From an uncultured Eubacteriales bacterium (GTDB lineage Bacteria > Bacillota > Clostridia > Oscillospirales > Acutalibacteraceae): a stretch of 24,143 bases of DNA. A program made the position numbers and the translations under genes. This document shows, one piece after another, positions 3,327-15,622 of this stretch (position 1 is its first letter; each line of letters begins with the position of its first letter). Location: assembly GCA_900313125.1 (NCBI GenBank), contig OMPZ01000124.1:1-24143 (forward strand), read 5' to 3'. Under the pieces are notes generated by a model that was given only the letters and a program-made list of their open reading frames with translations, searched no databases and had not been told where the DNA came from.

Positions 3327-3363
3327 ACCGAAGGGGTGCGGGGGCGACCGGAAAGCCCCCGCA
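3327..3363 (+). repeat. GC-rich REP-like hairpin repeat, copy 2
   Basis: ACCGAAGGGG-TGCGGGGGC-gaccggaaa-GCCCCCGCA; same orientation as copy 1. Confidence 0.8.
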
Positions 3364-14845: not shown

Positions 14846-14874
14846 TTGCTTTATCAGGCAGTATGTGGTAAAAT
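14846..14874 (+). promoter_or_regulatory. Sigma-A promoter of the nusB-recN cluster
   Basis: TTGCTT-N17-TAAAAT with TG-n extended -10; the predicted start near 14881 leaves a ~275-nt leader. Confidence 0.7.
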
Positions 14875-14923
14875 GATAAGAAGAGTTGTCGGCATCTGCC
14901 GATAATACAAAATAAGCCACCGT

Positions 14924-15147
14924 GAACAGGGGCAATGTTATCAGCTTAAAGATCATTAGATATCTGATCTGAACTGAAAACAGAAGAATGAATATTGAAG
15001 GCTCGGCGACCTCTCAGTCGCTTCGCTCCCGATCATACATACAGTATCTTGAGATCATAATAATAAAACAGCGCAGCGATCTTCCGATATTATTCATTCT
15101 TCAGTCTTAAGTTTTCAGCCTTAAATTGATGACATTGGGAACAGGGG
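14924..15147 (+). mobile_element. ~205-nt inverted-repeat-bounded structured element flanked by 9-bp direct repeats (MITE-like insertion or structured leader RNA)
   Basis: GAACAGGGG at 14924-14932 and 15139-15147. Inside: 14933-14944 pairs with 15126-15137, 14974-14981 with 15111-15118, and 14983-14994 with 15091-15102. No ORF. The structure is directly visible; the mobile-element identity is inference. Confidence 0.45.
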
Positions 15148-15154
15148 TACTTTT

Positions 15155-15622
15155 ATGAGCAGCAATAACGTTAAAGGCCACTCTAAGGAGGAGCGCGACG
15201 CTTTCATCGCAAAAATGCGCGATGCCCGCGAGCAGTGCTTTGCTATACTTTTTGAAATGACATTTACCGACGACAGCTATCAGGATATCCTCGATACGGC
15301 AGTTGAATCGCGCCTTATCGTTGCGGATGAGTTTACGGTAAAGATACTAGAATATTTCACGAACAACCGCGAGTCGGTCGACGATACGATAAAGTCGAAC
15401 CTCAAGGGCTGGACTTTCGAGCGGCTTGCGCGCGTTCCGCTCAGCATACTTCGCCTTGCGCTTTGCGAGCTTGCCTGCTGCAAAACGCCCGACAGCGTTG
15501 TGATAAACGAAGCGGTAGAGCTTACGAAAAAGTACGGCGCGGAGAAAGAGCCTGCGTTCGTAAACGCGGTCCTCGGCGCGGCGGTACGCAAAAAGAAGGA
15601 AAAAACAAACGATGAGCAGTAA
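15155..15622 (+). CDS. nusB: Transcription antitermination factor NusB
   Basis: AREQCFAILFE, W..ERL..V..SILRLA..E, VVINEAVEL.KKYG, FVNAVLG. Confidence 0.93.
   Translation: MSSNNVKGHSKEERDAFIAKMRDAREQCFAILFEMTFTDDSYQDILDTAVESRLIVADEFTVKILEYFTNNRESVDDTIKSNLKGWTFERLARVPLSILRLALCELACCKTPDSVVINEAVELTKKYGAEKEPAFVNAVLGAAVRKKKEKTNDEQ

Follow-up and report, generated by a model that had tools for sequence, protein, structure and literature searches.

Between prfC and a sigma-70-type sigma factor gene on one side and nusB, the first gene of an essential operon, on the other, the window (the whole 24,143-nucleotide stretch of DNA analysed here, from an uncultured Eubacteriales bacterium) carries about 200 bp that fold back on themselves and are bordered by short direct repeats. 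Is this stretch a mobile element that inserted into the leader of the operon, or an RNA that belongs there? A first-pass annotation, made from the sequence alone, had considered a domesticated MITE-like element, an intervening RNA processed by an RNase III-type enzyme and an undescribed non-coding RNA. We find that positions 14933-15137 are a 205-bp non-coding foldback MITE whose ends are those of an IS4-family insertion sequence, i.e., ordinary mobile DNA of a known kind and not a new RNA gene.

A foldback element in the nusB leader

The window belongs to a 1.63-Mb MAG (G000; 289 contigs, 78% complete). Downstream of the element, nusB is followed by a TsaD-like gene, xseA, xseB, ispA, dxs, an FtsJ/S4 methyltransferase gene, nadK, argR and recN (Table 1 gives the coordinates of all features). 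The putative promoter of this operon, assigned by its match to consensus with a predicted start near 14881, lies upstream of the insertion, and both of its hexamers are invariant in an alignment with five congeneric species. Since the promoter is conserved at this position, the element should be transcribed within the nusB leader, giving a predicted leader of about 275 nt as compared with about 60 nt in the congeners. When 14881-15185 is folded in silico, the element is predicted to make up a perfect-ended hairpin of its own, and the Shine-Dalgarno sequence that follows it to be unpaired. A consensus scan of the sense strand of the element found neither a promoter nor a terminator.

As first read, GAACAGGGG occurs at 14924-14932 and again at 15139-15147, where it supplies the Shine-Dalgarno sequence of nusB and aligns with the GAGGAG Shine-Dalgarno sequence of the congeners. 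The repeats are a genuine target-site duplication, yet one of 10 bp (TGAACAGGGG and GGAACAGGGG, identical at 9 of 10 positions) rather than the 9 bp originally assigned. It follows that the "extra G" which had made the right end appear asymmetric is position 1 of the duplication, at which the two copies have diverged, and that the element itself covers 14933-15137. Between the repeats, the long imperfect hairpin was recovered with a minimum free energy of -57.2 kcal/mol (z -2.79 against dinucleotide shuffles, 1 of 200 shuffles being as good), together with the side hairpins GATCA/TGATC and GCGAC/GTCGC, the three occurrences of GATCAT and the two G-U pairs of the stem. The minus strand folds at -56.1 kcal/mol, about 1 kcal/mol from the plus strand. 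Each terminal inverted repeat is 18 bp long, and the sole open reading frame inside the element encodes 40 amino acids (14988-15110); there is no transposase gene.

Table 1. Features of the nusB leader in the window, full-length elements with matching ends and further sites of the right-arm module
Feature	Position or length	Strand	Description
nusB-operon promoter (putative)	14846..14874	+	-35 TTGCTT 14846-14851; extended -10 TGgTAAAAT 14866-14874; upstream of the insertion
Small leader hairpin TCGGCA-tc-TGCCGA	14889..14902	+	belongs to the original short leader; paired in the predicted leader fold
Left target-site duplication copy	14923..14932		TGAACAGGGG; 9/10 identical to 15138-15147
MITE	14933..15137		205 bp: terminal inverted repeats, 7-nt periodic arrays, central hairpin region; no credible coding capacity
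Left terminal inverted repeat	14933..14950	+	CAATGTTATCAGCTTAAA; 3 mismatches to the family consensus CAATGTCATCAACTTAAG
Conserved right-arm module	15065..15122	+	AGCGCAGCGA hairpin half, then TCTTCCGATATTATTCATT, then TTCAGTC/TTAAGTT heptamers
Right terminal inverted repeat	15120..15137	-	CAATGTCATCAATTTAAG (minus-strand reading); 1 mismatch to consensus
Right target-site duplication copy	15138..15147		GGAACAGGGG; now the nusB Shine-Dalgarno region, 7 nt before the ATG
nusB	15155..15622	+	first operon gene, 3' of the insertion; ATG at 15155; Pfam NusB match, E 1.6e-28
L143, uncultured Clostridiales UMGS1211	1422 bp		10-bp duplication CCCCGAGGGG
L168, Clostridium hydrogenum	1593 bp		10-bp duplication TTTGGGCGTA
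L081, Ectopseudomonas mendocina	1636 bp		same ends, duplication not clear
Solo and other module sites	window 15065-15122; G000:C39:~1880-1980, C62, C118, C289:~45-100, C211:~2170-2420, C270, C192		

Related species carry the empty site

If the element is an insertion, its removal together with one repeat should restore an ordinary short leader, as the first-pass annotation had expected. The orthologous interval between the sigma factor gene and nusB lacks the element in five congeneric species (G017, G005, G002, G019 and G008), in which the BLAST pieces flanking the insertion lie 8-80 bp apart, as compared with at least 228 bp in the window. When 14933-15147 is deleted, the window becomes collinear with all five congeners from the promoter into the Shine-Dalgarno sequence and ATGAGT; the collinear stretch comprises the invariant promoter TTGCTTTAT ... 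TATGTGGTAAAAT, the small hairpin, AGCCACC..GTGAACAGGGGTACTTTTATGAGC and nusB. Given that all five congeners are empty and that the window is collinear with them after the deletion, the insertion is derived and specific to the lineage of the window.

The small hairpin of the original leader is clear in G017, G005 and G002 and degraded in G019 and G008. The G019 locus (L023, G019:C51, about 1000-1330) further contains an unrelated insert of ~325 bp, without the ends described here, between the sigma factor gene and the nusB promoter, and its leader has an additional hairpin of ~45 nt.

We also searched metagenome contigs with a 19-mer of the left flank for the empty or the filled allele, and the single match was an unrelated chance match. 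Among the contigs of four rumen and gut runs, whose coverage of the locus is too thin to bear on polymorphism, no joint skips the element, and one 151-nt contig of X2, which may be the source sample, spans the right junction.

A family of copies, each with its own 10-bp duplication

A BLAST search of the element against its own genome returned 17 matches, 16 of them at other places, and more were obtained with sensitive BLAST. The copies share an architecture of 18-bp terminal inverted repeats, with the consensus CAATGTCATCAACTTAAG, around a variable interior. This end motif occurs 24 times in G000 at up to 3 mismatches, as compared with 0 for the reversed control, and 48 times (again versus 0) in the congener G002 at up to 2 mismatches, where it mostly forms inverted pairs 180-270 bp apart. 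The left half of the window copy is poorly similar to the other copies.

Our census of the family comprised 62 unique end-to-end elements of 45-450 bp, 59 of which could be scored for their flanking 10-mers. These were identical at 10 of 10 positions in 20 elements, at 9 in 11 and at 8 in 3, so that 34 of the 59 agree at 8 or more positions. As the flanks of complete elements are identical over 10 bases, the duplication length of the family is 10 bp. The further genomic copies with different flanking duplications that the first-pass annotation had proposed to look for were thus found, each complete copy with a 10-mer of its own (e.g., CCCGGCAAAG, ACCGGAGACC, GGGCGAGAAG, CGTGTATACT and GGCGGAGATC), which argues against the duplication being part of the repeat unit.

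Several copies are of separate note. One G002 element (L051, G002:C14, 1029-1299) has mixed ends, one beginning CAATGTCAAC.. and the opposite one CACTATCCGC..; since the window genome contains both variants, either subfamilies may have recombined or there may be two related specificities of transposase. MAGs assigned to two different species share identical 198-bp copies of the window type (L011, G010:C136, and L012, G018:C143) and could reflect an orthologous site, a recent transfer or overlap in binning. In G000, a 50-bp MITE consisting of ends only (C221:75-124) and a 176-bp MITE with a hairpin/heptamer interior (C50:3361-3536) sit at the same point of two loci that have similar right flanks; they may represent paralogous sites, or the gain or loss of an interior. 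Widely spaced end pairs in G002:C14 and G018:C192 were considered as full insertion sequences and turned out to be two separate MITEs flanking ordinary genes (rapZ, whiA and a membrane protein gene).

The ends match IS4-family insertion sequences

The first-pass annotation had also proposed a search for transposases bordered by matching CAATG termini. The exact 18-mer, searched for in a single genome of each prokaryotic species, matched at least 119 contigs. Among the matches listed, most fell in Clostridia MAGs from gut and rumen that bear the labels Oscillospiraceae, Faecousia or Ruminococcus, and three were full-length elements with the motif at both ends (L143, L168 and L081; Table 1). Each of the three encodes one protein of 423-444 amino acids that exceeds the cut-off of the NCBIfam model NF033592, "IS4 family transposase" (235, 169 and 158 bits, respectively, versus 115), and the L081 protein also matches Pfam DDE_Tnp_1. 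In an alignment of these partner transposases with those of IS1675 and IS4, D124, D202 and E295 are invariant, as is the series Y288-x2-R291-x3-E295-x6-K302; these residues are the DDE and YREK (Y-2-R-3-E-6-K) hallmarks of the IS4 family. When a partner transposase was compared with a plasmid collection, the matches listed included IS4-family genes named IS1675, IS4 and ISCro3.

Closer to the window, a search of 300 genomes from its bacterial family with the L143 protein found relatives in 4 only. One of the family's elements, L175, has ends CAATGTCATTAACTTAAG and a 10-bp duplication, and L176/L179 have the same ends with a 9-bp duplication; several of the MITE copies in the window genome likewise have this variant of the ends. 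Twenty PF01609 loci in 40 relatives included none with the ends described here. Within the MAG itself, PF01609 and tblastn searches found no IS4-family transposase. These three results speak against our interpretation, although the MAG is only 78% complete and insertion sequences often fail to assemble, and the result for the MAG bears on current mobility and not on origin.

The IS4 subgroup (De Palmenaer et al. 2008, PMC2266710) is listed with ends of the form -AATR--------WTW---- and with direct repeats of 10-13 bp (PMC2266710, Table 1). The family consensus conforms to this signature (A2 A3 T4 G5 and T14 T15 A16), and the family's 10-bp duplication falls within the stated range. Of the individual elements, IS1675 of Lactococcus (at NCBI, "IS4-like element IS1675 family transposase") has ends CAATGTCATTAAGTTAAG that differ from the consensus at 2 of 18 positions, and its 10-bp target duplication (AAGTATACCC in pLLN8-2) has the same length. 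IS1675 is, however, a 1604-bp autonomous element with a transposase gene, which has only its ends in common with the 205-bp window element, and its transposase is only about 25-28% identical to those of the exact-end elements. IS4 of Escherichia coli, the type element, shares the end signature and, like the partner elements, encodes its DDE/YREK transposase in a single open reading frame, and its 11-bp duplication, about one helical turn, is comparable to the 10 bp seen here; its ends (TAATGCCGATCAGTTAAG), however, agree at 11 of 18 positions, and it too is autonomous.

An early candidate for the parent was IS231, a first guess based on the IS231A end, which we dropped since the end signature and the transposase matches favour the IS4 subgroup. 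Of the 8 positions in the IS231 end signature, CAT-------AA--TAA---, the window family agrees at 7 and has A instead of T at position 3, and the plasmid matches listed for the partner transposase were of the IS4/IS1675 type and not of the IS231 type, with no Bacillus among the ten organism groups named. For both of these reasons, we do not file the element under the IS231 subgroup. IS231/MIC231 and the IS231-type MITEs of the Bacillus cereus group nonetheless resemble the window family in how they are built and where they insert: they likewise carry IS4-family ends around unrelated modular passenger DNA, are mobilised in trans and generate a duplication of roughly 10 bp at a G/C-flanked palindromic target. 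The target of IS231A is GGG-N5-CCC, and IS231/MIC231 elements are modular.

Taken together, the other copies, the empty sites and the full-length elements with matching ends make us highly confident that the element is a non-autonomous MITE derived from, or mobilised by, an IS4-family insertion sequence of the IS4 subgroup with IS1675-like ends.

Target preference probably accounts for insertion into a ribosome-binding site

To describe the target, we pooled the reconstructed empty sites of the 36 elements whose duplications are at least 9/10 identical. The resulting consensus, CCY-N4-RGG, is palindromic across the 10 duplicated bases and is of the same type as the IS231/MIC231 targets. With such a target, G-runs such as AGGGG constitute half-targets, and in AT-rich intergenic DNA these are often Shine-Dalgarno sequences. 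The preference thus explains both the hit on the G-rich Shine-Dalgarno site of nusB and its regeneration.

The nusB copy has counterparts in this respect. Four complete G000 copies, at nusB, C273:1479-1680, C273:10119-10268 and C149:1415-1698, end 17-23 nt before a start codon preceded by a Shine-Dalgarno sequence, which in each of the four was re-created by the duplication; a looser count of open reading frames, without the Shine-Dalgarno requirement, adds a copy on C38, so that 5 of the 10 complete copies precede a start by 18-26 nt. We do not regard a location at ribosome-binding sites as typical of the family, for while it applies to 4 of the 10 complete G000 copies, only 4 of the 62 elements overall come within 30 nt of a start codon, and these 4 all belong to G000. 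Rather, the copies beside Shine-Dalgarno sequences would reflect target preference combined with the survival of harmless insertions.

These observations, along with the known chemistry of the IS4 family, suggest how the window copy may have arisen. A full-length element that shares the 18-bp ends would have provided a DDE transposase in trans, and this enzyme would have bound both terminal inverted repeats, excised the MITE and pasted it into a staggered 10-bp cut in the G-rich Shine-Dalgarno stretch of the nusB leader, the repair of which would yield the 10-bp duplication. The duplication would have rebuilt the Shine-Dalgarno sequence beside the ATG, so that the operon, although essential, could tolerate the element in its leader. 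At present the element would be transcribed as an autonomous 205-nt hairpin, with the Shine-Dalgarno sequence single-stranded at its foot. The copy itself is probably an immobile fossil, given that its left end has 3 mismatches to the consensus and that no IS4-type transposase was found in the MAG.

A modular interior

The interior of the element is not derived from the insertion sequences found, as a comparison with the full-length elements established. Its left side consists of ACTTAAG/ACTGAAA arrays and its right side of TTATTCA/TTCAGTC/TTAAGTT arrays, both with a period of 7 nt and in inverted order, an arrangement that produces the long stem; the centre is a hairpin region with GCGAAGC-type motifs. 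The right-arm module comprises a hairpin of 5-6 bp, the triloop of which is GAA or GCA, followed by TTCC(R)N(Y)ATTATTCATT and then by the 7-nt arrays. In its short-tandem-repeat interior the window MITE resembles BrickBuilt of Porphyromonas gingivalis, a MITE with an internal minisatellite (PMC4596501); its sequence, ends and host are unrelated.

In other MITEs that share these ends the interior is formed by GC-rich hairpin modules instead, and the family is modular, combining the same ends with quite different interiors. One such GC-rich hairpin repeat, ACCGAAGGGGTGC..GGGGGCGACCGGAAAGCCCCC..GC, stands alone in the window at 521-558 and 3327-3363 and is also the interior of same-end MITEs on G000 contigs C80, C17, C149 and C38. 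In G002, this repeat is itself the target of a MITE insertion (L187).

Could the interior be a mobile or functional repeat in its own right? One possibility, which we entertain only tentatively and consider the less probable course of events, is that the element is a composite, in which a minimal IS4-type MITE consisting of ends only (cf. G000:C221:75-124) acquired a second, independent repeat, perhaps one that is mobile or functional. In keeping with this, the right-arm module has about 20 genomic occurrences that lack IS4-type ends (28 matches versus 3 for the control; see Table 1), its hairpin stems differ among occurrences by compensatory changes, and no other block of the element is as well conserved in an alignment of 8 copies. 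Its depth in the four rumen and gut runs forms a sharp, high peak with many different flanks, and the varied interiors of the same-end MITEs point the same way. Against it, the terminal repeat finishes on its inner side with ACTTAAG, which is itself a heptamer unit, so that slippage starting at the ends could just as well have generated the arrays. A composite origin would complement the MITE origin of the element and does not exclude it. That the module is an independent unit with a function or mobility of its own, e.g., as a single-stranded DNA hairpin or a leader RNA motif, we regard as improbable.

Does the element act as an RNA?

A MITE by origin could nevertheless have been exapted as a regulator, its leader hairpin serving as an RNase III substrate or a 5' stabiliser that sets the mRNA level of the nusB operon. 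A precedent is offered by the Correia/NEMIS elements of Neisseria, foldback MITEs of about 100-200 bp that often lie between promoter and gene and are co-transcribed as a hairpin, and whose stems are documented to be cut by RNase III when they lie in leaders (PMC10969869). By analogy they may serve as a model for the RNase III processing of the window hairpin, which is possible if the hairpin is transcribed; they differ from the window element, however, in having other ends, a TA duplication, a parent transposase that is unknown and promoters of their own. The conserved promoter upstream, from which the element should be transcribed, and the predicted autonomous fold that leaves the Shine-Dalgarno sequence free are compatible with such a role, as is the position of the four G000 copies before Shine-Dalgarno-preceded start codons. 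These four, along with a copy on C115 about 50 nt upstream of a start, moreover carry the conserved module in the sense orientation. Yet the stem displays neither covariation nor strand bias, as detailed below, five congeners do without the element, and the position near a start codon is not shared across the family. Since the CCY-N4-RGG preference and purifying selection account for the insertions at Shine-Dalgarno sequences, we consider exaptation unlikely, and the domestication proposed in the first-pass annotation is not supported.

The evidence on covariation and strand bias is as follows. RNAalifold, applied to eight copies of the window type, gave a weak consensus fold of -12.6 kcal/mol with an unfavourable covariation term of +2, and only 1 of the 31 consensus pairs shows a double-sided (compensatory) change. 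Conservation across these copies is lopsided, the right arm being nearly invariant and the left arm variable. When 12 copies were folded on both strands, the plus strand folded better in 6, the minus strand in 5, and 1 was equal. The two G-U pairs of the window stem had been taken as a hint of RNA-level selection; while the pairs are real, the chance that two such pairs fall on one strand is one in four, and neither the compensatory changes nor the folding of the two strands supports that reading.

Searches against Rfam gave a concordant picture. Within the window, there was no match at gathering thresholds and nothing meaningful at E values up to 10, and the 8 loci that hold other copies likewise gave no match. 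A 6S-like RNA, which the first-pass annotation had already doubted, is rejected: the element has no match to the covariance model (RF00013) even at E 10, and the genome's own 6S RNA gene lies elsewhere, at G000:C38:8984-9171 (minus strand; locus L203, 73.5 bits). About 370 bp from this 6S gene there is a MITE whose ends place it in the window element's family (C38:9543-9686).

The idea that the element only looks like a transposon and is instead a gene for a structured non-coding RNA, or a cis-regulatory leader, be it 6S-like, riboswitch-like or of a new class, could draw on the long stable hairpin (z -2.8), the position between a promoter and an essential operon and the two G-U pairs on the sense strand, but it is effectively refuted by the lack of any Rfam match, by the same leader without the element in five congeners, by copies whose contexts are unrelated and whose 10-bp duplications differ from one to the next, by the near absence of compensatory pairs and by a minus strand that folds about equally well.

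Implications

Identifying the element as an IS4-type MITE explains the odd predicted 275-nt leader on an essential operon, and its main practical value lies in annotation. No new biological question is opened by it unless the interior hairpin/heptamer module proves functional. Should that module be an independent unit, its sense copies beside Shine-Dalgarno sequences (at nusB, a nadD-like gene, a plsX-like gene and one more) would point to selection on expression and not to mere tolerance. For the MITE family of rumen and gut Clostridia, the analysis supplies a defined end motif (CAATGTCATCAACTTAAG), a 10-bp duplication, the target consensus CCY-N4-RGG and, as candidates for its mobilisation, IS4-family transposases of the IS4 subgroup. 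The target preference, in turn, offers a simple reason why these elements can land on ribosome-binding sites without killing the gene.
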